From contig NC_086097.1 in NCBI RefSeq assembly GCF_963921235.1, positions 4,278,001-4,342,000 on the forward strand: 64,000 nt of DNA. Reading direction: 5' to 3'. Of this stretch, positions 1,425 to 34,882 are shown in pieces. The DNA comes from Mobula hypostoma (Eukaryota). The notes under the pieces were generated by a model. The model did not search any database and had not been told where the DNA came from. It saw only the letters and a program-made list of their open reading frames with translations. The translations under genes were made by a program, and so were the position numbers. Every line of letters begins with the position of its first letter. The first letter of the stretch is position 1.

Positions 1425-1981
1425 CGAGGAATTCTGCAGATGCTGGAAATTCAAGCAACACACATCAAAGTTGCTGGTGAATGCAGCAGACCAGGCAGCA
1501 TCTCTAGGAAGAGGTACAGTCGACGTTTCAGGCCGAGACCCTTCGTTGGGATTAACTGAAGGAAGAGCTAGTAAGAGATTTGAAAGTGGGAGAGGGAGGG
1601 GGAGATCCAAAATGATAGGAGAAGACAGGAGGGGGAGGGATGGAGCCAAGAGCTGGACAGGTGATTGGCAAAAGGGATATGAGAGGATCATGGAAGAGGA
1701 GGTCTGGGGAGAAAGGTGGGGGAGGGGGGGAACCCAGAGGATGGGCAAGGAGTATAGTCAGAGGGACAGAGGGAGAAAAAGGAGAGAGAGAGAGAGAGAA
1801 AGAATGTGTGTATATAAATAAATAACGGATGGGGTACGAGGGGGAGGTGGGGCATTAGAGGAAGTTTGAGAAGTCAATGTTCATGCCATCAGGTTGGAGG
1901 CTACCCAGACGGAATACAAGGTGTTGTTCCTCCAACCTGAGTGTGGCTTCATCTTTACAGTAAAGGAGGCCATGGATAGAC
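1425..1981 (-). mobile_element. Penelope-like element 3' fragment (GIY-YIG endonuclease C-terminus plus terminal repeat)
   Basis: ORF 1855-2073 contains LEEQHLVFRLGSLQPDGMNIDF, typical of PLE GIY-YIG ends. A degenerate hammerhead motif lies at 1518-1553. Confidence 0.85.
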
Positions 1982-2205
1982 CTGCAGATGTTGGAAATTC
2001 TGAGTAATGCACACAAGATGCTGCAGGAACTCAGCAGGTCAGCAGTACCTATGGAAATGAATAAACAGTCCAAGTTTCAGATTAAGTCCTGATGAAGGAT
2101 GTCAGCCTGAAACATTGACTGCTTATTCATTTCCATAGATGCTGCCTAATGTGTTACTCCTCCAGCATTTGTGTGTGTTGCTGTGGATTTCCAGCATCTG
2201 CAGAC
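1982..2205. mobile_element. Penelope-derived inverted-repeat short element with a central hammerhead motif
   Basis: Arms ctgcagatgttggaaat... and ...atttccagcatctgcag of about 100 bp each. CTGATGA at 2089-2095, GAAAC at 2109-2113. Confidence 0.8.
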
Positions 2206-2603
2206 TTTCGCATCATGTTTAGTACTCTTTCTGAGTAAGTGTGACCCAAGAATATAATGCTTTAATGTAATAGAAATGACTGAAGCAGTCGGGATCAAAC
2301 TTCTTACTTGAATCAATCATGTGTAAAATGGAATCTATTCCATGGTGTATTTTCCTTAGTGGAATTCCTTTTCTATTCTGCAGCTATTAATTAATATTAA
2401 GGAGATTTCAGAGTAATGAATGCACATTTAATAATGCCTTGCTTTCCGAGATGATATTATTGTTCAATGTTAAGTGATACAGACAGCAGAAGAACAAATT
2501 TACCATACTGGTTTTCCACTTTACAACTACCCACATTAATAATGAGGCCTCTGTCAGTAAGGATCGACCATGGATGTTGCTCCCCAGCTGCCTAAATACG
2601 GAA

Positions 2604-5600
2604 GCCAGGACAGTATGATGAAGAGACCAGGGGGATGGGACCAGGACAGTATGATGAAGAGACCAGGGGGATGGGACCAGGACAGTATGATGAAGAGATC
2701 GGGGGGATGGGACCAGGACAATATGATGAAGACACTAGGGGGATGGTACCAGGACAGTTTGATGAAGAGACCAGGGGATGGGACCAGGACAGTATGATAA
2801 AGAGACCAGGGGGATGGGACCAGACAGTATGATGAAGACATCAGGGGGATGGGACCAGGACAGTATGATGAAGAGACCAGGGGGATGAGACCAGGACAGT
2901 ATGATGAAGAGACCAGGGGGATGGGACCTGGACAGTATGATGAAAAGACCAGGAGGATGGGACCAGGACAGTATGATGAAGAGACCGGGGGGATGGGACC
3001 AGGACAGTATGATGAAGAGGCCAGAGGGATGGGACCAGGGCAGTATGATGAAGAGACCGGGGTGATGGGACCACAACAGTATGATGAAGAGGCCAGAGGG
3101 ATGGGACCAGGACAGTATGATGAAGAGTTCAGGGGGGATGGGATCAGGACATTACGATGAAGAGACCAGGGGGGTGGGACCAGGACAGTATGATGAAGAG
3201 ACCAGGGGGATGAGACCAGGACAGTATGATGAAAAGACCAGGAGGATGGGACCAGGACAGTATGATGAAGAGACCAGGGGGATGGGACCAGGACAGTATG
3301 ATGAAGAGACCAGGGGGATGGGACCAGGACAGTATGATGAAGAGACCAGGGGGATGAGACCAGGACAGTATGATGAAGAGTTCAGGGGGGATGGGACCAG
3401 GACAGTGTGATGAAAAGACCAGGAGAATGGGACCAGGACAGTATGATGAAGAGACCGGCGGGATGGGACCAGGACAGTATGATGAAGAGGCCAGAGGGAT
3501 GGGACCAGGACAGTATGATGAAGAGACCAGGGGGATGGGACCAGGACAGTATGATGAAGAGGCCAGAGGGATGGGACCAGGACAGGATGATGAAGAGTTC
3601 AGGGGGGATGGGATCAGGACATTACGATGAAGAGACCAGGGGGGTGGGACCAGGACAGTATGATGAAGAGACCAGGGGGATGGGACCAGGACAGTATGAT
3701 GAAGAGACCAGGGGGTTGGGACCAGGACAGTATGATGAAGAGACCAGGGGTATGAGACCAGGACAGTATGATAAAGAGACCAGGGGGATGGGACCAGGAC
3801 AGTATGATGAAAAGACCAGGAGGATGGGACGAGGACAGTATGATGAAGAGACCAGGGGGGTGGGACCAGGACAGGATGATGAAGAGTTCAGGGGGGATGG
3901 GATCAGCACATTACGATGAAGAGACCAGGGGGGTGGGACCAGGACAGGATGATGAAGAGACAAGGAGGATGGGACCAGGACAGTATGATAAAGAGACCGG
4001 GGGGATGGGACCAGGACAGTATGATGAAGAGTTCAGGGGGGATGGGACCAGGACAGTATGATGAAGAGGCCAGAGGGATGGGACCAGGACAGTATGATGA
4101 AGAGTTCAGGGGGGATGGGATCAGGACATTACGATGAAGAGACCAGGGGGGTGGGACCAGGACAGTATGATGAAGAGACCAGGGGGATGAGACCAGGACA
4201 GTATGATGAAAAGACCAGGAGGATGGGACCAGGACAGTATGATGAAGAGACCAGGGGGATGGGACCAGGACAGTATGATGAAGAGACCAGGGGGATGGGA
4301 CCAGGACAGTATGATGAAGAGACCAGGGGGATGAGACCAGGACAGTATGATGAAGAGACCGAGGGGATGGGACCAGGACAGTGTGATGAAAAGACCAGGA
4401 GGATGGGACCAGGACAGTATGATGAAGAGACTGGGGGGATGGGACCAGGACAGTATGATGAAGAGGCCAGAGGGATGGGACCAGGACAGTATGATGAAGA
4501 GACTGGGGGGATGGGACCAGGACAGTATGATGAAGAAACCAGGGGGATGAGACCAGGACAGTATGATGAAGAGACCAGGAGGATGGGACCAGGACAGTAT
4601 GATGAAAAGACCAGGAGGATGGGACCAGGACAGTATGATGAAGAGACCAGGGGGATGGGACCAGGACAGTATGATGAAGAGACCAGGGGGATGGGACCAG
4701 GACAGTATGATGAAGAGACCAGGGGGATGAGACCAGGACAGTATGATGAAGAGACCGAGGGGATGGGACCAGGACAGTGTGATGAAAAGACCAGGAGGAT
4801 GGGACCAGGACAGTATGATGAAGAGACTGGGGGGATGGGACCAGGACAGTATGATGAAGAGGCCAGAGGGATGGGACCAGGACAGTATGATGAAGAGACT
4901 GGGGGGATGGGACCAGGACAGTATGATGAAGAAACCAGGGGGATGAGACCAGGACAGTATGATGAAGAGACCAGGAGGATGGGACCAGGACAGTATGATG
5001 AAAAGACCAGGAGGATGGGACAAGGACAGTATGATGAAGAGACCAGGGGGATGGGACCAGGACAGGATGATGAAGAGTTCAGGGGGGATGGGATCAGGAC
5101 ATTACGATGAAGAGACCTGGGGGATGGGACCAGACAGTATGATGAAGAGACCAGGGGGATGGGACAAGGACAGTATGATGAAGAGACCGGGGGGATGGGA
5201 CCAGGACAGTATGATGAAGAGACCAGGGGGATGGGACCAGGACAGTATGATGAAGAGACCGGGAGGATGGGACCAGGACAGTATGATGAAGAGACCAGGG
5301 GGATGGGACCAGGACAGTATGATGAAGAGACCGGGGGGATGGGACCAGGACAGTATGATGAAGAGACCAGGGGGATGGGACCAGGTCAGTATGATGAAGA
5401 GACTGGGGAGATGGGACCAGGACAGTATGATGAAGAGACCAGGGGGATGGGACCAGGACAGTATGATGAAGAGACTGGGGGGATGGGACCAGGACAGTAT
5501 GATGAAGAGACCAGGGGGATGTGACCAGGACAGTATGATGAAGAGACAGGGGGATGGGACCAGGACAGTTTGATGAAGAAACCGGGGGGATGGGACCAGG

Positions 5601-7590
5601 GCAGTATGATGAAGAGCCCAGGAGGATGGGACCAGGACAGTATGATGAAGAGACCAGGAGGATGGGACCAGGACAGTATAATGAACAGACCAGGAGAATG
5701 GGACCAGGACAGTATGATGAAGAGGCCAGGGGGATGGGACCAGGACAGTATGATGAAAAGACCAGGAGGATGGGACAAGGACAGTATGATGAAGAGACCA
5801 GGGGGATGGGACCAGGACAGGATGATGAAGAGTTCAGGGGGGATGGGATCAGGACATTACGATGAAGAGACCAGGGGGATGGGACCAGGACAGTATGATG
5901 AAGAGACCAGGGGGATGGGACCAGACAGTATGATGAAGAGACCAGGGGGATGGGACCAGGACAGTATGATGAAGAGACCGGGGGATGGGACCAGGACAGT
6001 ATGATGAAGAGACCAGGGGGATGGGACCAGGACAGTATGATGAAGAGACTGGGAGGATGGGACCAGGACAGTATGATGAAGAGACCAGGGGGATGGGACC
6101 AGGACAGTATGATGAAGAGACCGGGGGGGATGGGACCAGGACAGTATGATGAAGAGACCAGGGGGATGGGACCAGGACAGTATGATGAAGAGACTGGGGA
6201 GATGGGACCAGGACAGTATGATGAAGAGACCAGGGGGATGGGACCAGGACAGTATGATGAAGAGACAGGGGGATGGGACCAGGACAGTATGATGAAGAGA
6301 CCAGGGGGATGGGACCAGGACAGTATGATGAAGAGACTGGGGAGATGGGACCAGGACAGTATGATGAAGAGACCAGGAGGATGGGACCAGGACAGTTTGA
6401 TGAAGAGACCGGGGGGATGGGACCAGGTCAGTATGATGAAGAGACCAGGGGGATGGGACCAGGACAGTATGATGAAGAGACCAGGAGGATGGGACCAGGA
6501 CAGTATGATGAAGAGACCAGGAGGATGGGACCAGGACAGTATAATGAACAGACCAGGAGGATGGGACCAGGACAGTATGATGAAGAGACCAGGGGAGTGG
6601 GACCAGGACAGTATGATGAAGAGACCAGGGGGATGGGACCAGGACAGTATGATGAAGAGACCAGGAGGATGGGACCAGGACAGTATGATGAAGAGACCGG
6701 GGGGATGGGACCAGGACAGTATAATGAAGAGACCGGGGGGATGGGACCAGGACAGTATGATGAAGAGTTCAGGGGGGATGGGACCAGGACAGTATGATGA
6801 AGAGACCAGGGTGATGGGACCAGGACAGTATGATGAAGATGTCAGGAGGATGAGACCAGGACAGTATGATGACGAGACCAGGGGGATGGGACCAGGACAG
6901 GATGATGAAGAGACTGGGGGGATGGGACCAGGACAGTATGATGAAGAGACCAGGGTGATGGGACCAGGACAGTATGATGAAGAGGTCAGGAGGATGAGAC
7001 CAGGACAGTATGATGACGAGACCAGGGGGATGGGACCAGGACAGGATGATGAAGAGACCGGGGGGATGGGACCAGGACAGTACGATGAAGAGACCGGGGG
7101 GGATGGGACCAGGACAGTATGATGAAGAGTTCAGGGAGGATGGGACCAGGACAGTATGATGAAGAGACCAGGGGGATGGGACCAGGACAGTATGATGAAG
7201 AGACCAGGGGGATGGGACCAGGATAGTATGATGAAGAGGTCAGGAGGATGGGACCAGGACAGTACGATGAAGAGATTAGGAGGATGGGACCAGGACAGTA
7301 TGATGAAGAGACCAGGGGGGATGGGACCAGGACAGTATGATGAAGACACCAGGGGGATGGGACCAGACAGCATGATGAAGAGACCAGGGGGGATGGGACC
7401 AGGACAGTATGATGAAGACCCGGGGGGGGATGGGACCGCACAAGATGATGAAGAGACCAGGATAGTATGATGAAGAGACCGGGGGGATGGGACCAGGACA
7501 GGATGATGAAGAGATCAGTGTGGATGGTGTTGAAGAGACCAGGGGATGGGACCAGGAGAGTAAGATGAAGAGACCAGGGGATGGGACCAT
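2604..7590. repeat. 36-bp G/purine-rich minisatellite, about 138 units, consensus GGGACCAGGACAGTATGATGAAGAGACCAGGGGGAT
   Basis: Read directly; units start at 4261 and 4297. Lies in a PPP4R4 intron. Confidence 0.98.
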
Positions 7591-7596
7591 GGTAGT

Positions 7597-9275
7597 CTGG
7601 ATTTTAAGAAGGCATCTGACAAGCTGCTACACATAAGGCTGCATAACAAGCTATGAGCCTATGGTATTACAGGAAAGATTCTAGCATGGATAAAACAGAG
7701 GCTAATTGGTAGGAGGCAAAGAATAAAGGGAGCCTTTTCTGGTTGGTTGCTGGTAACTAGTGGTGTTCCACAGGGGTCTGTGTTAGGACCGATTTGTTTT
7801 ACGTTATATGTCAATGATTTCCATGATGGAATTGATGACATTGTTGCAAAGTCTGCAGCCGTTATGAATATAGGTGGAGGGGAAGGTAGTTTTGAGGAAA
7901 TAGAGAGGCTACTGAAGGACTTGGACAGATCAGGAGAATGGGCAAAGAAATGGCAGATGGAATGCAGTGCTGGGATGTACATGGTCATGCAGTTCGATAG
8001 AAGAAAGGTTTCTAGCATGGATAAAGCAGTGGCTGATTGGCAGGAGGCAAGGAGTGGGAATAAAGGGAGCCTTTTCTGTCTGTCTGCCCGTGACTAATGG
8101 TGTTCCACAGGGATCTGTGTTGAGACCGATTCTTTTTACATTATATGTCAATGATTTGGATGATAGAATTGATCGGTTGATTGCAAGGTTTGCAGTCAAC
8201 ATGAAAATAGGTGGAGGAGCAAGTAGTTTTGAGGAAGTAGAGAGGCTACAGAAGGACTTAGATAGATTAGGAGCATGGGCAAAGAAATGGCAGATGGAAT
8301 ACAGTTCCAGGAAGTCTATGGTCATGCACTTTCGTAGAAGAAATGAAAGGGTTGACTATTTTCTATTTGGAGAGAAAATGCAAAAAAAACGATGTGCAAA
8401 GGGACTTGGGAGTCATTGTGCAGGGTTATCTAAATGTTAATTTACAGATTGAGTCAGTGGCAGGAAGGCAAATGCAATGTTAACATTCATTTCAAGAGGA
8501 GTAGAATATAAAAACAATGATGTAATGTTGAGCCTTTATAAATCACTGATGAGGCCTTACTTGGAGTATTGTTAGCAGTTTTGGGCCCTTATCTTAGAAA
8601 GGATGTGTTGAAACTGGAGAGGGTTCAAAGAAGGTTCAGAGAAATGATTCTAGGATTGAATGGCTTGTTTTATGAAGAGCATTTGATGACTCTGGGCAAC
8701 TGTATTTTCTGGAATTCAGAAGAATGAGGGGTGACCTTATTGAAACCTATCAATAGTGAAAGGCCCTGATAGAGTAGATGTGGAGAGGAGTCTATGTTAT
8801 ATTGACTGTCCTGTTGTACATACTATTTATTACAAATTATTATAAATTGCACATTGCACATTTAGATGGAGAAGTAACATAAAGATTTTTACTTCTCATG
8901 TATATGAAGGATGTAAGTAATAAAGTCATTTCAATTCAATTCAGGATGTTTCCTATGGTGGGAGAGTCTAAGACCAGAGGACACAGTCCCTGAATAGAGG
9001 GGCATCTTTTTAGAACAGAGAAGAGGAGGAATTTCTTTAACCAGAGGGTGGTGAATCTGTGGAATTCATTGCCACAGACAGCTATGGAAGCCAAGTCTTT
9101 ATGTATATTTAAAGTAGAGGTTGATAGATTCTTGATCGGTCAGGACATGAAGTGATACGGGATGAAGGCAGGAGATTGGGGCTGAGAGGAAAATTGGATC
9201 AGCCATATTGAAATGGCAGAGCAGACTCAATCGACAAAATGGCCTAATTCTGCTCCTATATCTTATGGTCTTATT
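7597..9275 (+). mobile_element. CR1 LINE, 5'-truncated and decayed, with an internal tandem duplication of about 330 bp and a LINE-tail insertion (8790-8943)
   Basis: VTSGVPQGSVLGP occurs twice (7747 and about 8090); 3' tail tcttatggtcttat. Confidence 0.9.
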
Positions 9276-18244: not shown

Positions 18245-18806
18245 AAGCCAATCACCCCCACTTGGGGAATTGTGAGCAGCTTTGGGCCCTTATCTAAGAA
18301 AGGATGTACTGGCATTGGAGAGGGTCCAGAGGAGGTTTGTGAGAATGATCCCAGGAATGACAGAGTTAATGTTTGAGAAGCACTTGATGGCTCTGGACCT
18401 AAACTCACTGGAGTTTAGAAGAATGAGGCCTAAATGAAATTCATCAGATATTTGAATGTCTAGATTGACTGGATGTGGAGATGATGTTTCCTATAATGGG
18501 GAGACTAGGACTAGAGATAACAGCTTCAAAATAGGAGAATTTCCCTTTGGATCAGAGATGAAGAAGAATTTCTTTCACCAGAAGATGAGGAATTGGTGGA
18601 ATTCATTGCCACAGACTGCTGTGGAGGCCAAATCATTAGGTATATTTAAAGCGGAGATTGATAGGTTCTTGATTAGTAAGGGTATCAAGATTATGGGGAG
18701 AAGGCAGGAGAATGAGGTTGAGGGGGATGATAAATCTGCCATGGAATCATGGAGTGGACTCGATGGGCTGAATGGCCTAATTTTGCTTCTAGGTCTTATG
18801 GTTAAT
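18245..18806 (+). mobile_element. CR1 3' fragment
   Basis: KNFFHQKMRNWWNSLPQTAVEA; tail ggtcttatgg. Confidence 0.8.
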
Positions 18807-18983
18807 TAGTCAGAAACTGACATTTGAGCTTACTGCCACAGTGCCTACACTAGAAATATTACAAGTCTCCAATCTCTGGATGAAGAATAGATTGTAATTG
18901 CAAATGAAAATCAATAACAAATAACATACATCAAAGTTGCTGGTGAACGCAGCAGGCCAGGCAGCATCTATAGGAAGAGGCGC

Positions 18984-19019
18984 AGTCGACGTTTCAGGCC
19001 GAGACCCTTCGTCAGGACT
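18984..19019 (-). ncRNA. Minimal type-I hammerhead ribozyme motif in a Penelope terminal fragment (18920-19060)
   Basis: Minus strand reads AGTC-CTGACGA-AGGGTCTCGGCCT-GAAAC-GTC-GACT: stem I AGTC/GACT, intact core, stem II AGG/CCT, GUC cleavage triplet. Confidence 0.8.
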
Positions 19020-19099
19020 AACTGAAGGAAGAGTGAGTAAGGGATTTGAAAGCTGGAGGTGATCTGTTTGATGCCAATAGTAACTTTATTAGTTGTCCA

Positions 19100-19290
19100 A
19101 TCACAAACAAGAGAAAATTTGCAGATGCTGGAAATCTGAGCAACACACACAAAATGCTGGAGGAACTCAGCAGCCCAGGCAGCATCTAGGAAAAGAGTAT
19201 AGTTGACATTTTGGGCCAAAACCTCAACTGTACCCTTTTCCTAGATGCTGCCTGGCCTGCTGAGTTCCTCCAGCAATTTGTGTGTGCTGC
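19100..19290. mobile_element. Penelope-derived inverted-repeat short element (centre deleted)
   Basis: acacacaaaatgctggaggaactcagcag... and ...ctgctgagttcctccagcaatttgtgtgtg arms. Confidence 0.75.
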
Positions 19291-19658
19291 GCTTCAGTTG
19301 TTGTGTTTACAGTCTTACTCCAACACTAAAATCAAATACCTTGGAATAAATTTATACCTTACATAAGGAAATTTTCTTCAAAATTATTTATTGATTCTCA
19401 TTCTTTAGACAAATCTACCATATCTTGTAGAGCAACTTGATACAGACAGTAGCTATATATTGATCCATAAGCACTTTAATAGTGAAGAAATTCTTGCCTA
19501 TCTGTACAACTTGCAGAGGGTAAGCATTCCAGGCAGTCATTTGGAAGTGTATAACCTCCTACCACTAGGTGAATTGTTGTACTGGCCAGAAAAACAGGAG
19601 CGGCAGGAATCCAATTAGCTCCTCAAGCAGCCTGCTCCACAGAATCGATAAGATCCTG

Positions 19659-19830
19659 GCTGATCCAAATTTAACCTCAGCTTCCCTTATCTCTAAAAAA
19701 TCTTCAAGCTGATCCAAACGTAGACTCAGCTTCCTGTATCTCTAAAATCATAGATGATCCAGACGTAACCTCAACATTCCTTACCTCTAAAATCATAGCC
19801 AAACATAGCCTTTGCTTCCTTTATCTTTCT
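19659..19830. repeat. About 45-49-bp tandem repeat, about 4 units, adjoining a CR1 3' UTR remnant
   Basis: Units gctgatccaaa...ctcagcttcc..atctctaaaa start at 19659, 19708, 19753 and about 19798. Confidence 0.75.
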
Positions 19831-21477
19831 TTATCCTGAGTCCCACACCCATAATATGTAAACTTTTCAGCTTTAGGGAAATGGGTCGTAACTAAAAAAA
19901 CAGCCAGCATCAATGTGATGAATTCAACTTCAGAGTATAAAAATGACATTTGAGAAAAGATGATTTTATTTCAAGTATTAAAAAAATTGTACAACTGTTT
20001 TTGATCTTGTAAAAATGTTTGAGACTTTATGTTAATTGGGCTCGAATAAACCAATCCCATTACAACCTAAACTGAAGCCGTTCCTATTCAGAACCATTGT
20101 ATATAATTCTGATTGGCAACTATTCGTTTATATTCGTGAACTCTTTACTAGAATTTCATAGAAGTTAGAACACAGAAACAAGCTATTTCAGTTCAATCTA
20201 AGAATCCATGCTTTTTTCTCACTAATACCATCATGAAGGAGGTACAAGAGCCTCAGGACTCACCAGGCTCAGAAACAGTTATCACCCCTTATCCATCAGG
20301 CTCTTGAACCAGAGAAGATAACTTCACTGAACTTCACTTGCCCCATCATTTAACTTTTCTACCACAAACTGAACCCACCAGAAACTATGGAGTCACTTTT
20401 AAAGACTCTTCATTTCATGTTCTCAATATTTATTGCTTTCTTATTATTTGTTTTAAATATATTTTTTCAGCTCAAGCTGGTAAAACCTGAGGTATGGGTA
20501 TAGGCAAGTACACTCATTTCTCAATTGCTAGGAACTTCCAGACTATTCTAGTGGCTTTTTGAAGATTAGCATAAATATTGCTGTGTAGCCCTAATTGTTT
20601 ATTGCTATTGAGAAGTGCCTTTGGGATGATATCACTTGTGGAAATTACTATTGAGACAATGTATACCCTGTTCATGTTCCATAGTCCTTCAATTTCCTCA
20701 TTTAATTCAGCATATTTCTAGTGTTTTCACTTACTGATTTCTATATGTTATGTATGTTTGGAATAGCTATATCTACTCAATAAGTTCTTTTTGCTTATTT
20801 ATCTTGTATTATTATATATCCAGATGGGTATTATGGATTGTCCTATCTGTAATTATTATAATATTGTTATTATTATTATTTTCTTCTGTTCTTGCAAATT
20901 TATTGTCTTTTGCATATTGGTTGTTTGTCCTGTTGGGCATTGTTTTTCACTGATTTTATTGTGTTTCTTGTATTTACTGTGAATCTCCACAAGAAAATGA
21001 ATCTCAGGGTTGTTCTGTATATGGTGACATATATGTACTTTGATAATAAATTTACTTGGAACCTTGAATCTAGGCTCTCTTCTCTATAGTAATCCTTTCA
21101 CATTCTCCAATATAAACTTAATAAAACTGAATCTGTACTTAAAAGGTAGATAAAGTTAGTAGTAAGTATTAAAGAGATTGCTAAATCTGGATTATTTGGC
21201 ATTGGATGTTCCATATAACATGCTGTTTGCACAATAAATTTCTGTACTTTTATTAGAATGAAAAGGAGACAAACTTCCTTCATGCTTCTGGAAATGTATA
21301 TCAATAACTTAGAAAATCATGGTGATGTTGTGAGGCAGGATTAATCTGCCATTTTGACAAGGAAAGTTGTAAAAACAATTAGCTTGTCAATGGCAGGGTA
21401 TCTGATCATGTACTCATGATACACAAACAGAGGAACTCAATGAGTCAGTCTGCATCTGTGGACGCAATAGGATAGGC

Positions 21478-21958
21478 ATAGAATATAGAACAGTAGAGCA
21501 CAAGAACAAGGCCTTCGGTCCACAATGTTGTGCTGAACCAGATAAATTAGTAATCAAATGGCCAATTGAACCAATCCTCTCTGCCTACACAATGTCCATA
21601 TCCTTCCATTTTCTTCACATACATGTGTCTATCTAAATGTCTCTTAAAAGTCCCTACTGTGTCTGCCTCTACCACCACTCCAGGCAGCACATTCTAGACA
21701 CCTACACTCTCTGTGTAAAGAAAACTTGCCTGTCACATCTCCTTTGAAATGACCCCCTCTCACCTTAAAGGCATGCCCTCTGGTATTAGACATTTGGACT
21801 CCGGGAAAAAAAAAGATGCTGTCTGTCTACTCTGTCTGTGCCTCTCGCAGTCTTATTAACCACTATCAGTTCTCCCCTCAGCCTGTGCTGCTCCAGAGAA
21901 AACATCCCAAGCTTGTCCAATATGGGCATGCCCTCTAATCCAGGCAACATCCTGGTAG
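21478..21958 (-). mobile_element. CR1 3' fragment
   Basis: TRMLPGLEG...LGMFSLEQHRLRG on the minus strand. Confidence 0.8.
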
Positions 21959-22703
21959 ATGAGTTAGTTAACATTTTGCACAGAAATCTTACATCTTGCT
22001 CTAAAGCAGAGTCTTGGCTCAATGTGTTCACTATCACTTTGCTTTACAGATGCTGCTTGATCTTCTGTGTTCCTCCAGCAGATTGGTTTTGCCCCATATT
22101 ATAATATCTGCAATCTCTTGTGTATGTGTTCATGGTAGTTGAGTAAAACTCTGATTTCACACACTTTACAATGATGCCCAGTGCTAAGTACGGACATAGC
22201 TATCAGTGACATCATGGCAAAGGTACGGTACCTCCCATGAACCCATACACAATGAACGTGAAAGATGTGATAGTATTAGAGTCATAGAAAAGTACAGCAC
22301 AGAAACTGGCCCTTTGGTCCATCTAGTCCATGCCAAACCATTTAAGCTGCCTACACCCATCGACCTGCACCCGGGCCATAGCCATCCGTAGCTCCACCAT
22401 CCATGTATGTGTCCAAACTTCTACGTTTTCCAAATGTTCAAAGAAGGGGTGTCCTAAATATCATTTGTGCAGCAAACTTTCTGCAGCGGAGTTGTGGATC
22501 TGGAGAAGAGTAAGTAGGAAGATAATAGATTTGGATGTTTCCCTGGATCACAATTAGTCACAATTTGAGAAGGAAGCAGAAATCGCAGAACTGGGAGTGT
22601 TATCAATACTGCTGGATTAGTGTGAACCATAAAGTTCATGGGAACAGGAAAGTAGCAAATGATTTTGCATTGAAACCAGCCATGCCAAAGATCAGCTTGT
22701 AGA

Positions 22704-22706
<3 letters not shown>

Positions 22707-22772
<66 letters not shown>
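22707..22772. repeat. Compound microsatellite (GT)23(GA)10
   Basis: Read directly. Confidence 0.97.
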
Positions 22773-22773
<1 letters not shown>

Positions 22774-23619
22774 GGAGTTTTGCTTCCTTCATTTTTAACA
22801 ACTGATCTGACATTTTGTTTGTTAAATTTGTGCCAGGAATAGATGCAGTGCAAACTCACCTCACTTGTTTTCCTATTTACTTGTCCATTGAAATCCTTGG
22901 GAATTCTTCATGGTGTGTATCCCATACAACTGATGCCTTTTGGAGGCCTTTGCAACCTCACAGACTTTCTTTGCAATCTTCAGGTCTTTGTATATTGATC
23001 CACCAACCAATGAAACTGTTTGCAAAAATGTGACTTTATATTACATAGAAGAAATACAGTATATAGACTTGTACAGCATTGTAGATGGATATTTTAATAA
23101 TGCTTTTCAACCTGATTTGCAATGATAGTTTATTTTATTTATTTAGAGATACAGTATGGACCAGGCCCTTCTGGCCCAACAAGCTGCATCACCCAGGAAC
23201 TCTTGATTTAATACTTGCCTAATCACAGGACAATTGACAATGTCCAATTCACTTACTAGCTGGTACATCTTTGGATTTTGGGAGGAAATTGGATCACCCA
23301 GAGGAAACCCACACATTCCATGTGAAGGAATGTACAGACAGTGTTAGAATTGAACAGTGAACTCCGATGCCCTGAGGTGTTGCATTAACTACGACGCTAC
23401 CGTGTTCTTTGAGTAAACACAAAAAATAAATTACAGGATCACTTGTAATTGCAGGGTTTTTTAAAGTATACTTCTGCTCAGTTAAGATGCATATGATTAC
23501 GTGTCAATGTCAAATAAATAATTGATGGATGTAAAACTTGTGACAATGGTAATTATGGTATTAGTTGAGCATCAGAACAAATTAAAATGTAAATGATTAT
23601 TTTTTAAACAAAAGATCCC

Positions 23620-23811
23620 TTACAGTTTAGTGGGATCTTTCACCCTTCCTATAAAGAGTAGAGTTTTTGTTATATCTTCGTGAATCATAAAGATAAAAGG
23701 GTGGTCTATTTTTATGACAAGTGGCAGTGAATAAGGAACTGCAAGAACCCCAGTGACGGCTGCGGCTTCTGTTCCTTTCTCGTCCACATTAATCACTGCT
23801 TTGTGAATGAC
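23620..23811 (-). CDS. SERPINA10: SERPINA10 last coding exon with reactive centre loop (EKGTEAAAVTGVLAVPY-SLP), P1=Tyr
   Basis: ttccAG acceptor, inhibitory hinge, P1-P1' Tyr-Ser characteristic of ZPI, serpin signature DHPFIFMI, TAA stop. CDS totals 697+271+148+192=1308 nt = 435 aa + stop. Confidence 0.95.
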   Translation of the reverse strand, partial: VIHKAVINVDEKGTEAAAVTGVLAVPYSLPLVIKIDHPFIFMIHEDITKTLLFIGRVKDPTKL

Positions 23812-23902
23812 CTGGAAAGATGAGCAAAAAAAATCCACAGTTAATCAGATTCCGTTTCCTCCTCATGCTGCCTTAAGAGATTGTTCCTTGAATAAGCAAT
23901 AC

Positions 23903-25500: not shown

Positions 25501-26777
25501 AGAAACATAGAAACATAGAAAACCTACAGCATTATACAGGCTCTTCGGCCCACAAAGCTGTGCTGAATATGTCATTAACTCAGAAATTACCTAGGGTTAC
25601 CCATGGCCCTCTATTTTTCAGAGCTCCATGTACCTATCCAGGAGTCTCTTAAAAGACCCTATCGTATCCTCCTCCACCACTGTTGCTGGCAGCCCATTCC
25701 ACGCACTCACCACTCTTTGCGTAAAAAACTTCCCCTGACATTTCCTCTGTACCTACTTCCAAGCACCTTAAAACTGTGTCCTCTCGTGCCAGCCATTTCA
25801 GTCCTGGGAAAAAACCTCTGACTACACATGATCAATACCTCTCAACATCTTATACACCTCTATCAGATCACCTCTCATCCTCCATCACTCCAAGGAAAAA
25901 AGGCCGAGTTCACTCAACCTATTCTCATAAGGCATGCTCCCCAATCCAGGCAATATCCTTGTAAATCTCCTCTGCACCCTTTCTATGGTTTCCACATCCT
26001 TCCTGTAGTGAGGCGACCAGAACTGAGCACAGTACTCCAAGTGGGGTCTGACCAGGGTCCTATATAGCTGCAACATTACCTCTTGGCTCCTAAACTCAAT
26101 CCCATGATTGAAGAAGGCCAATGCACTGTATGCCTTCTTAACCACAGAGTCAAACTGCACAGCAGCTTTGAGTGTCCTATGGACTCGGACCCCAAGATCC
26201 CTCTGATCTTCCACACTGCCAAGAGTCTTACAATTAATACTGTATTCTGCCATCATATTTGATCTACCAAAATGAGTCACCTCACACTTATCTGGGTTGA
26301 ACTCCATCTGCCACTTCTCAGCCTAGTTTTGCATCCTATCAATGTCCCACTGTAACCTCTGACAGCCCTCCACACTATCCACAACACCCCCAACCTTTGT
26401 GTCATCAGCATATTTACTAACCCATCCCTCCACTTCCTCATGCAGGTCATTTATAAAAATCACGAAGAGTACGGGTCCCAGAACAGATCCCTGAGGCACA
26501 CCACTGGTGACCGACCTCCATACAAAATACGACCCGTCTACAACCACTCTTTGCCTTCTATGGGCAAGCCAGTTCTGGATCCACAAAGCAAGGTCCCCTT
26601 GGATCCCATGCCTCCCTACTTTCTCAATAAACCTAGCATGGAGTACCTTGTCAAATACCTTGCTAAAATCCATATACACTACATCTACTGCTCTACCATC
26701 ATCAATGTGTTTAGTCACATCCTTAAAAATTTCAGTCAGGCTCATAAGGCATGACCTTCCTTTGACAATGCCATGCT
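25501..26777 (-). mobile_element. Young CR1 (TTTCTATG-tail subfamily) nested in an older + strand CR1 (25373-25500 and 26778-27130)
   Basis: RT motifs YMDFSKVFDKV, VPQGSVLGP, YADDTK. Host reads aaagagattt|...|tgatagagatata across the insert. Confidence 0.9.
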
Positions 26778-27349
26778 GATAGAGATATATAAAATTATGA
26801 AGGGTATAGATAGGATAAATGCCAACAGGCTTTTTTCTACTGAGGGCGAACGAGACTACAACTAGAGGTGATGGGTTAAGGGTGAAAGGTGAAATGAGGG
26901 GGAGCTTCTTCATTCAGAGAATGGTGAGAGTGTATAATAAGCTGTCAGCACAAGTGGTGGATGTGAGCTTGATTTCAACATTTAAGAGAAATTTGGATAG
27001 GTGGATGAATGGGAGGGATATGGAAGGCTATGATCTGGATGCAGGTCGATTGGACTATCAAATTAATAGTTCAGCACAGACTAAATGGGCCAAAGGGCCT
27101 GTTTCTGTGCTGTAGTGTTCTATGACTCTAAATCCCCTTTCAATCTCTTTTTTGTCATCTCATGTCCTTATACTCTTCATAGCTCTGCCATTGGAAAAAG
27201 ATTCTTTGGCTTTATCTATGCCTCTTATAAAGTTGTACATCTCTCTCACTTTACCCTCCAGCCTTCTACTGTGTTGCCACTTTTGAGACCATAAAACAAA
27301 GGTACAGAATTAAACAATTCAACCCATCACACTCCAATCACACGCCAGT

Positions 27350-28664: not shown

Positions 28665-29312
28665 TCATGAAAATGAAGGAGTGGGAATAAAGGGCTCCCT
28701 TTACTGGTTGGCTGTGAGTGATGACTGGTGTTCTGCAGGGGTTAATGTTGGGTCTGCTACTTTTCATGTTATACGTCAATGATTTTGATGATGGAATTGA
28801 TGGCTTTGTGGCCAAGTTTGTGGATGATACGAAGAAGATGTTGAGGAAGCAGGGAATCTGCAGAAGGACTTGGAACAGATTGGGAGAATGGTCAAAGGGG
28901 TGGCAGATGGAATACAGTGTAAGATAGTGCATAGTTATGCACCTTGGTAGAAGGAATAAAGGTGTAGGTTATTTTCTAAACAGGGAGCCAATTCAGAAAT
29001 CAGAGGTGCAAAGGGACTTGGAGTTCCTCGTGTAGGATTTCCTGATGGTTAGCTTGCAGAATGAGTCAGATGTAAGGAAGGCAAATGCAATGTTTCAGAG
29101 GACTTGAATATAAAAACAAGGATATAAAGCACTGGTCAGATGACTTTTGGAGTATTGTGAGTCCTATATCTAAGAAAGGAATTTCAAAGTTGGGTGGTCC
29201 AGAGGAGGTTCATGAGATTGATTCTGTGGATGAGAAGGTTAATGCATGAGGAGTGCTTGATGTCTCTGAGCCTGTACTCACTGGAGTTTAGACACATGAG
29301 GGAGGATCTCAT
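28665..29312 (+). mobile_element. Decayed CR1 fragment
   Basis: YVNDFDDGIDGFVAKFVDDTK. Confidence 0.8.
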
Positions 29313-33588: not shown

Positions 33589-34712
33589 TTTGACAAGGTT
33601 CCACACGGTAGGCTTATTCAGAAAGTCAGAAGGCATGGGATCCAGGGAAGTTTGGCCAGGTGGATTCAGAATTGGCTTGCCTGCAGAAGGCAGAGGGTTG
33701 TGGTGGAGGGAGTACATTCAGATTAGAGGATTGTGACTAGTGGTGTCCCACAAGGATCCGTTCTGGGACCTCTACTTTTCGTGATTTTTATTAACGACCT
33801 GGATGTGGGGGTAGAAGGGTGGGTTGGCAAGTTTGCAGACGACACAAAAGTTGGTGGTGTTGTAGATAGTGTAGAGGATTGTCAAAGATTGCAGAGAGAC
33901 ATTGATAGGATGCAGAAGTGGGCCGAGAAGTGGCAGATGGAGTTCATCCTGGAGAAGTGTGAGGTGGTACACTTTGGAAGGACAAACTCCAAGGCAGAGT
34001 ACAAAGTAAATGGCAGGATACTTGGTAGTGTGGAGGAGCAGAGGGATCTCGGGGTACATGTCCACAGATCCCTGAAAGTTGCCTCACACGTGGATAGGGT
34101 GGTTAAGAAAGCTTATGGGGTGTTAGCTTTCATAAGTCGAGGGATAGAGTTTAAGAGTCATGATGTAATGATGCAGCTCTATAAAACTCTGGTTAGGCCA
34201 CACTTGGAGTACTGTGTCCGGTTCTGGTCACCTCACTATAGGAAGGATGTGGAAGCACTGGAAAGGGTACAGAGGAGATTTACCAGGATACTGCCTGGTT
34301 TAGAGAGTATGCATTATGATCAGAGATTAAGGGAGCTAGGGCTTTACTCTTTGGAGAGGAGGAGGATGAGAGGAGACATGATAGAGGTGCACAAGATAAT
34401 AAGAGGAATAGATAGAGTGGATAGCCAGCGCCTCTTCCCCAGGGCACCACTGCTCACTACAAGAGGACATGGCTTTAAGGTAAGGGGTGGGAAGTTCAAG
34501 GGGGATATTAGAAGAAGGTTTTTTACTCAGAGAGTGGTTGGTGCGTGGAATGCACTGCCTGAGTCAGTGGTGGGGGCAGATGCACTAGTGAAGTTTAAGA
34601 GACTACTAGACAGGTATATGGAGGAATTTAAGGTGGGGGGGTTATATGGGAGGCCGGGCTTAAGGGTCAGCACAACGTTGTGGGCTGAAGGGCCTGTACT
34701 GTGCTGTATCTA
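33589..34712 (+). mobile_element. Young CR1, 5'-truncated, with a long intact RT/C-terminal frame (33733 onward)
   Basis: TSGVPQGSVLGP, KFADDTK, LVRPHLEYC; nearly identical to 60225-60736 over their shared length. Confidence 0.92.
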
Positions 34713-34882
34713 CGTTCCACTCCTGGACTCAGGGACTTGGACTATATATATTTTTTGTGTGACTGTATTTTACCGCTATCTCATATATGCTATATGTGCC
34801 CATGGTGTGTCTGACTGTTGCTGCTGTGTTTAGCACCTTGCCCTGGAGGAATGCTGTTTCCTTTGCCTTTATTCATGAGTGT

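Follow-up and report, generated by a model that had tools for sequence, protein, structure and literature searches.

Minimal hammerhead ribozymes (min-HHRs), devoid of helix III and loop 3 and presumed to act as dimers, were defined in 2014 by Cervera and de la Pena (PMC4209133). They were found in the terminal repeats (pseudo-LTRs) of all the Penelope-like elements (PLEs) examined, a group whose defining trait is a reverse transcriptase (RT) followed by a GIY-YIG domain, and all of these elements retain the full set of catalytic nucleotides. Dispersed copies run into thousands, as in fish, coelacanth (about 4,000) and Xenopus (about 9,000), and pairs of min-HHRs lie near one another on opposite strands. 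Outside the core, the class is marked by an extra nucleotide between A9 and position 10.1, a G10.1-C11.1 pair, palindromic positions 15.2-16.2 and a helix I of 4-5 bp. When assayed in vitro in the same study, monomers gave no cleavage and dimers a low one, some activity being obtained with dimeric and trimeric constructs, and constructs mimicking helix III cleaved mostly at non-physiological Mg2+.

For the PLE of Anolis, the available part of PMC11167929 reports that the hammerhead cut only with the element protein, that RNA-seq ends were not seen at its cut site, and that hammerhead mutants were without effect on in vitro insertion. A review (PMC6765202), in its accessible portion, summarises the dimer model and credits dimer cleavage to Lunse, Weinberg and Breaker. 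Animal retrozymes are derived from the terminal regions of PLEs in the available text of a preprint (bioRxiv 10.64898/2026.07.22.740005), which records them in its single cartilaginous fish. Here we describe a motif of this kind in a 64-kb stretch of the Mobula hypostoma genome (64,000 nt, hereafter the window).

The motif at 18984-19019 and its parts

On the minus strand, positions 19019 to 18984 read AGTC CTGACGA AGGGTCTCGGCCT GAAAC GTC GACT, exactly as stated in the first-pass annotation, which had claimed a 36-nt hammerhead with all core nucleotides, a loopless stem III and a palindromic ACGU. Its parts are as follows.

18984..19019, minus strand: minimal (helix-III-less) type-I hammerhead motif, read from the sequence, with traits that agree with the min-HHR of PMC4209133
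19016-19019, minus strand: helix I, 5' strand
19009-19015, minus strand: CUGACGA box
19008, minus strand: A, unpaired or closing
18996-19007, minus strand: helix II and its loop
18992-18995, minus strand: GAAA box
18991, 18990, 18989 and 18988, minus strand: C15.2, G16.2, U16.1 and C17, respectively
18984-18987, minus strand: helix I, 3' strand

The core nucleotides C3U4G5A6N7G8A9, G12A13A14, A15.1, U16.1 and H17 are all present in this copy (CUGACGA ... GAAA ... (C)GU-C), helix I consists of 4 bp (AGUC/GACU), and the predicted cut site falls between 18988 (C17) and 18987. Helix II is 3-4 bp long and can be drawn in two registers, one with the pairs A-U, G-C and G-C, the other with a bulged A followed by G.U, G-C, G-C and a U.G pair closing the CUCG loop. 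Taking the A at 19008 as the extra nucleotide makes the 10.1-11.1 pair a G.U, the other register giving A-U and no extra nucleotide; in a sister subfamily (...GGCCCGAAAC) the same pair is G-C. Helix III has no loop at all, GAAA-C abutting G-U-C directly, and A15.1-C-G-U16.1 is self-complementary. The assignment to the Penelope kind of helix-III-less type-I hammerheads, in need of dimerisation, is likewise supported, pairing of the ACGU of two copies being the sole route to an active fold.

An Infernal search against Rfam, proposed in the same annotation as a check, retrieved no family at its gathering score across the whole window and, in the interval 18700-19400, no hammerhead family even at E ≤ 10. 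The families in question, which we take to be Hammerhead_1, _3, _II, HH9 and HH10, are modelled with helix III included; a match was therefore not expected, and the null result was not counted against the motif. A loose descriptor limited to the core matched the window 12 times, where 9.8 matches would be expected, a number of at least 12 being reached by 33 of 100 shuffles. For the full 36-mer the chance expectation is 0, and it recurs at 1518-1553 with 3 mismatches.

The parent element family and its copies

Using the family tail as query, nhmmer found 10 copies inside the window, of which the following are relevant here.

18923..19059, minus strand: insertion with the motif, a 137-nt 5'-truncated PLE tail fragment (nhmmer match 19038-18918; contig divergence points)
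19100..19294, no single strand: older palindromic (foldback) tail relative (inverted repeats I1 and I2; nhmmer 19223-19100 on the minus and 19211-19294 on the plus strand)
1425..1571, minus strand: second tail copy of the young family (sequence comparison, nhmmer)
1980..2210, no single strand: old-family palindromic copy (descriptor match, nhmmer, alignment)

The copy bearing the motif is 5'-truncated and without an ORF, and it ends at the short 3' end (...GATGTRTGTT), without the extra tail of about 36 nt carried by longer copies (as compared with the insertions L038-L040). Its limits are precise, contigs of other copies parting from the window sequence exactly at 18923 and 19059. A target-site duplication could not be recognised for it, the best candidate being 10 nt with 1 mismatch, displaced from the boundaries.

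In minus-strand RNA the foldback at 19100..19294 would stand directly upstream of the motif; only the CpG-decayed 3' half of its own motif is left, with G12 lost, and a 26-nt portion of one arm shows 96% complementarity with the 3' flank of the hammerhead copy. Its inverted repeat I1 (19140-19290) has 75-nt arms, 91% complementary and with 1 nt between them. Several miRNA-precursor models match this foldback strongly, though all below threshold (e.g., MIR6140 with 63.9 bits, where the gathering score is 140), and these are generic long-hairpin matches; when transcribed, foldbacks of this type would give long dsRNA hairpins. The copy at 1425..1571, which extends into the element interior and includes the end of the nuclease ORF, has a broken core (CUGA changed to CCAA, and helix I AGUC to AAUC), and the plus-strand hammerhead of 1980..2210 is CpG-decayed (GAAACATTGACT). 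No second intact sense copy was found near the motif, the nearest minus-strand relatives being the decayed half-copy 19223-19100 and the core-mutated copy 17 kb away.

At the family level, an RT, a GIY-YIG domain and the tail motif were read in the longer copies L031, L032, L051 and L052. The RT ORF has a YIDD motif and matches RVT_1 below the Pfam cut-off (E 6.9e-5, 23.1 bits); the GIY-YIG ORF that follows, legible as GVIYCVRC...LYIGET...R..EH, also stays below the cut-off (Pfam E 2e-4 to 1e-3). Some 300 nt separate the nuclease stop from the motif, and the long 3' end follows about 100 nt further on. The RT part has as its ESM Atlas neighbours (score 0.98) clusters that bear an RT and come from rotifers, cnidarians, chordates and arthropods. 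On the succession of RT and GIY-YIG, with Pfam scores below cut-off and the name 'Penelope' returned by no source, we provisionally assign the family to the PLEs. A fragment of the RT has 117,541 first-look candidates genome-wide; scoring covered 148 of them, identity being 95-100% throughout, and in 10 the open frame reached at least 800 aa, with a maximum of 961. The family thus looks recently, and perhaps currently, active.

In most of the long copies seen, the RT and GIY-YIG frames differ, with an overlap of about 500 nt (L051, 4255-4757; L052 and L031 alike). The frame shifts near a C-run (…KHIFPSPP…), and in L032 (3125-4321, plus strand) both domains are fused in one frame; a frameshift site, an intron that was retained or a defect common to the copies might account for the offset.

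The short insertions L038-L040 have target-site duplications of 13-15 bp and are frequently 5'-truncated, a pattern consistent with target-primed reverse transcription. The long 3' end of the element is ...CTGCAGAATTCCTGTTGTT, and the inverted partner arm often stops earlier, at ...GATGTGTGTT, the two alternative tail ends being about 36 nt apart. In L052 the upstream partner is inverted and 5'-truncated. Among the first 100 genome matches of the core, close neighbours are always arranged minus-then-plus, facing outward, and no unit-length tandem direct pair was found, inverted pairs only; direct tandem copies were not found at the motif locus either. A reading of the palindromic copies as DNA transposons (MITEs) was ruled out by the variable 13-15 bp duplications, the 5' truncation and the RT-encoding full-length relatives. 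The retroelement pair of L039 (G000:C1:3655200-3656000) sits in a tandem satellite of about 47 bp (…GTGTGTATATGCAGTTGTTCAGTGTGTCCCC.AGTGGTCACA…).

The 28-nt core, with any base allowed at N7, occurs 46,653 times without mismatch in the 3.48-Gb assembly (23,291 and 23,362 on the two strands), and its reversed control has 0 matches. Allowing Y/R degeneracy at five dinucleotides (the four CpGs of the window copy and the 11.1-G12 position) raises the count to 98,092, and with both flanks used as anchors and the motif left free 13,708 copies were retrieved; the reversed controls of the genome pattern counts were again 0. By hand count, 73 of 100 listed flank-anchored copies (of the 13,708) have an identical 36-mer. 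The remaining 27 carry 21 transitions (per 400 CpGs) and 14 other changes (per 2,800 sites, i.e., 0.5%), with G8, C3 and A9 among the positions changed.

The annotation had inferred that the intact copy may still be catalytically competent, but function does not follow from intactness: in a family diverged by about 0.5% at non-CpG sites, an intact core is expected from age alone. Judged from this divergence, the intact core of the window copy is the mark of a recent insertion and not of selection at the locus. An older family, anchored on the downstream flank only, gave 3,056 matches, from which 30 copies were taken for a decay test, 22 being alignable and 8 being dropped (score <30). At non-CpG positions the catalytic core was changed at 32 of 218 sites (14.7%) and the non-core at 49 of 369 (13.3%; Fisher p 0.62), and CpG positions were changed in 70 of 174 cases. 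Extra conservation of the core relative to its flanks, the sign of function to be looked for, was therefore absent among the dispersed genomic copies, master copies being outside this test; since core and non-core decay alike in old copies, the decay of the dispersed copies is neutral.

Between the old and the young family no part of the tail is as well kept as the 36-mer (33 of 36 positions identical, versus 21 of 30 for the next 30 nt), and this comparison of two families weakly suggests that the motif matters to master copies. Four old-family copies (G000:C1 4477072, 4514847, 5432853 and 5466409, i.e., 4.47-5.47 Mb) carry one and the same broken core (…AGTCAYRAAGAAGCTCTCAGCCC.AAGTG…), which points to local duplication or to a sub-lineage whose hammerhead was no longer functional when it spread.

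Serpin read-through RNA, predicted folding and rival readings

The surroundings of the insertion relevant to its transcription are the following.

23623..23809, minus strand: last exon of a clade-A serpin gene, coding portion (ORFs; RNA contig joint; PDB sequence matches)
23620-23622, minus strand: serpin stop (ORF list)
23810-23900, minus strand: 91-nt serpin intron, spliced in RNA contigs
19282..23790, minus strand (strand inferred): stretch downstream of the serpin stop tiled by exact RNA contigs, at about 4-5% of exon depth

The motif had been placed 4.6 kb downstream of the stop of SERPINA10, on the same strand. Distance and strand hold, the name SERPINA10 is unconfirmed: searches of PDB sequences with the first and last coding exons gave corticosteroid-binding globulin (CBG) and alpha-1-antitrypsin on top, with protein Z-dependent protease inhibitor (ZPI) similar for the last exon. 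The minus-strand exons encode a clade-A serpin. By eye, ORF fragments at 26323-26913 and 25885-26322 (minus strand) and at 33727-34833 and 28718-28927 (plus strand) resemble non-LTR (LINE-type) reverse transcriptases; their positions are within introns of the serpin gene or close by, and they have no relationship with the Penelope family.

Four sequencing runs (X1, X2, X3 and X5) were compared as contigs, a form in which strand, read ends and cleavage are not readable. The joint 23809/23901, corresponding to the last serpin intron (GT..AG, minus strand), is present in X1, X2 and X3, which therefore hold RNA. The depth of the downstream stretch relative to that of the exon was 25.4/573.8 in X1, 457.3/8970 in X2 and 34.5/846.5 in X3. 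X5, from the same study, had no cover of the serpin exon and a depth of about 0 in the downstream stretch, serving only as a contrast within the study, from which silence is not deduced. The depth first falls 408-522 nt after the serpin stop, where poly(A) signals cluster, and serpin transcripts continue for at least 4.3 kb past these main signals; the three RNA runs that show this represent two organisms. The contigs are interrupted by a (CA)n microsatellite (22697-22783).

The RNA at 19282-23790 would be either read-through or a long 3' UTR isoform. The proposal that read-through serpin RNA contains the motif is thus supported by contigs that reach the repeat at about 4-5% of exon depth, with strand and continuity across the repeat inferred. 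Beyond the motif, one exact X1 contig (18309-18625) has a depth of 18.7, versus 25.4 before the motif. Over the repeat bin the summed depth exceeds 100,000 in the RNA runs, sense tail copies being abundant, and with this abundance partners for a dimer in trans exist in principle.

The minimum free energy structure of the isolated 36-mer is a rod hairpin of -10.0 kcal/mol in which the core GACG pairs with the cleavage-site CGUC; the hammerhead-compatible fold, with helices I and II only, reaches -6.0 kcal/mol. For two copies the optimum is an extended duplex (-28.3), versus -9.5 for the double hammerhead, with a gap of 18.8 kcal/mol. When the 136-nt stretch 18924-19059 was folded, pair probabilities of helices I and II did not exceed 0.001, and in a 521-nt transcript context the motif region pairs elsewhere. 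Nearest-neighbour energies omit the tertiary contacts of the hammerhead core and so understate the active fold; as modelled, they favour inactive structures, in agreement with the poor published activity of the min-HHR class. Cleavage at the window copy is, in our view, unlikely.

The explanation that we consider best, with a probability of roughly 85%, is that of a min-HHR in the tail (pseudo-LTR) of a very young, massively amplified Penelope-like family, the window copy being a solitary dead-on-arrival fragment, idle at its locus. A 137-nt fragment, 5'-truncated and without an ORF, would have been inserted 4.6 kb downstream of the clade-A serpin gene. In the life cycle of the element, the motif would, according to the literature, process the element RNA, two copies pairing through the palindromic ACGU to make helix III, a pairing that may also need the element protein. 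At the locus, serpin read-through would yield small amounts of RNA with the motif, most likely held in inactive structures and without meaningful cleavage. The lone window fragment probably does nothing.

The window copy might instead be a working ribozyme that cuts the serpin read-through RNA after C18988, in trans with the transcripts of other copies, which we consider quite unlikely. Its full set of core nucleotides with the palindromic ACGU, the presence in three runs of read-through RNA that extends to the repeat (about 4-5% of exon depth), the abundance of tail-bearing RNAs in the X runs and the cleavage seen in vitro with dimeric and trimeric min-HHR constructs are in accordance with such an activity. 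That cleavage was low, however, and with helix-III mimics it required mostly non-physiological Mg2+ (PMC4209133), and in the available part of PMC11167929 the Anolis hammerhead is protein-dependent and leaves no RNA-seq ends at the cut site. The active dimer, moreover, is predicted 18.8 kcal/mol above the dimer optimum; copies are equally numerous on both strands (23,291 vs 23,362), and antisense partners, with duplexes of far more than 100 bp, would therefore outcompete a 12-bp hammerhead contact; and the X1 contig 18309-18625 hints at RNA running past the motif. On a broader scale, with about 10^5 near-identical sense and antisense tails, many of them transcribed, it is conceivable that hammerhead-bearing Penelope tails in read-through or 3'-UTR RNA are cut in vivo via trans dimers, perhaps aided by the protein of active elements. 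We hold this to be very unlikely; if true, a retroelement ribozyme would be a genome-wide modifier of the 3' ends of host transcripts.

A different role, unlikely in our opinion, would be that of a rod-like hairpin or a protein-binding tail signal (e.g., for the RT), for which the 36-mer would mainly have been kept, the hammerhead boxes being a non-catalytic legacy. The optimal structure of the 36-mer is indeed a continuous hairpin of -10.0 kcal/mol with GACG and CGUC paired, and the two marks of the most successful subfamily both favour the hairpin over the active fold, U7 to C turning the U.G of the hairpin into C-G and C11.1 to U weakening the closing pair of helix II, although two substitutions are anecdotal. 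The Anolis hammerhead mutants without effect on in vitro insertion (PMC11167929, available part) point the same way, as do the 4 of 100 listed old-family copies that share a broken core as if their lineage had spread without it; these four lie within 1 Mb, however, and may be duplications. Protein binding is putative for this family, and the PLEs in the literature keep all catalytic nucleotides, more than a hairpin by itself would call for.

A fortuitous resemblance to the hammerhead consensus, arising in repeat DNA of another kind, would agree with a loose descriptor no more frequent than in shuffles (12 vs 9.8 expected) and with the lack of an Rfam hammerhead match. The motif is found, however, at the known PLE location, beside RT and GIY-YIG ORFs, and it shows palindromic 15.2-16.2, an extra nucleotide following A9 in one register of helix II and, in the sister subfamily, G10.1-C11.1, none of which is dictated by the core boxes; chance is effectively ruled out by the family context.

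Comparison with described hammerhead systems

The animal non-LTR retrozymes, as presented in the available text of bioRxiv 10.64898/2026.07.22.740005, are likewise hammerhead-bearing, non-autonomous and derived from PLE terminal regions. They differ in their head-to-tail tandem arrays, canonical hammerheads with a short helix III and small circular RNAs, whereas the copies described here are solo fragments or inverted pairs, without head-to-tail repeats.

With Poseidon of Anolis carolinensis (PAc), as far as the available part of PMC11167929 describes it, the family shares the condition of a vertebrate PLE with RT, GIY-YIG and a hammerhead without helix III. Tails of variable length arise in PAc by internal initiation of reverse transcription, comparable with the two alternative 3' ends found here (...GATGTGTGTT or about 36 nt further). 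In PAc, on the contrary, the ORF begins within helix II of the hammerhead, whereas in the present family the stop of the nuclease ORF precedes the motif by about 300 nt.

Our literature search for shark Penelope hammerheads found 'shark' only as a term for a motif shape; the fish alignments in the supplements of PMC4209133 may show a similar motif. No question is raised here beyond those already raised for PLE hammerheads. With open frames of up to 961 aa, a non-CpG divergence of about 0.5% and about 10^5 tails, the family offers a handy natural system for the role of the Penelope hammerhead, and in vivo cleavage is directly testable, the read-through RNA of a liver-type host gene bearing a sense copy.

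The closest likeness is with the PLE min-HHRs of PMC4209133, shared traits being the type-I topology, full core boxes, the lack of helix III and loop 3, palindromic 15.2-16.2, a helix I of 4-5 bp and, in one of the two registers of helix II, the extra nucleotide that follows A9. The location in the terminal region of an element with RT and GIY-YIG is also shared at the family level, the window copy itself being a 137-nt fragment without an ORF, as are the thousands of dispersed solo copies and the close pairs on opposite strands. Helix II, on the other hand, is 3-4 bp here versus 7-8 bp in the Schistosoma families, and positions 10.1-11.1, which close it, form G.U in this subfamily (A-U in the other register) in place of the usual G-C. 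Copies outnumber the 4,000-9,000 of coelacanth and Xenopus about tenfold, and their sequences are almost all alike, recalling the re-invading D. virilis case, in contrast to the highly variable min-HHRs. The motif of the window is a further member of the RNA class described in 2014, and the main value of the finding is the identification of this class in a genome in which its copies are young and exceptionally numerous.
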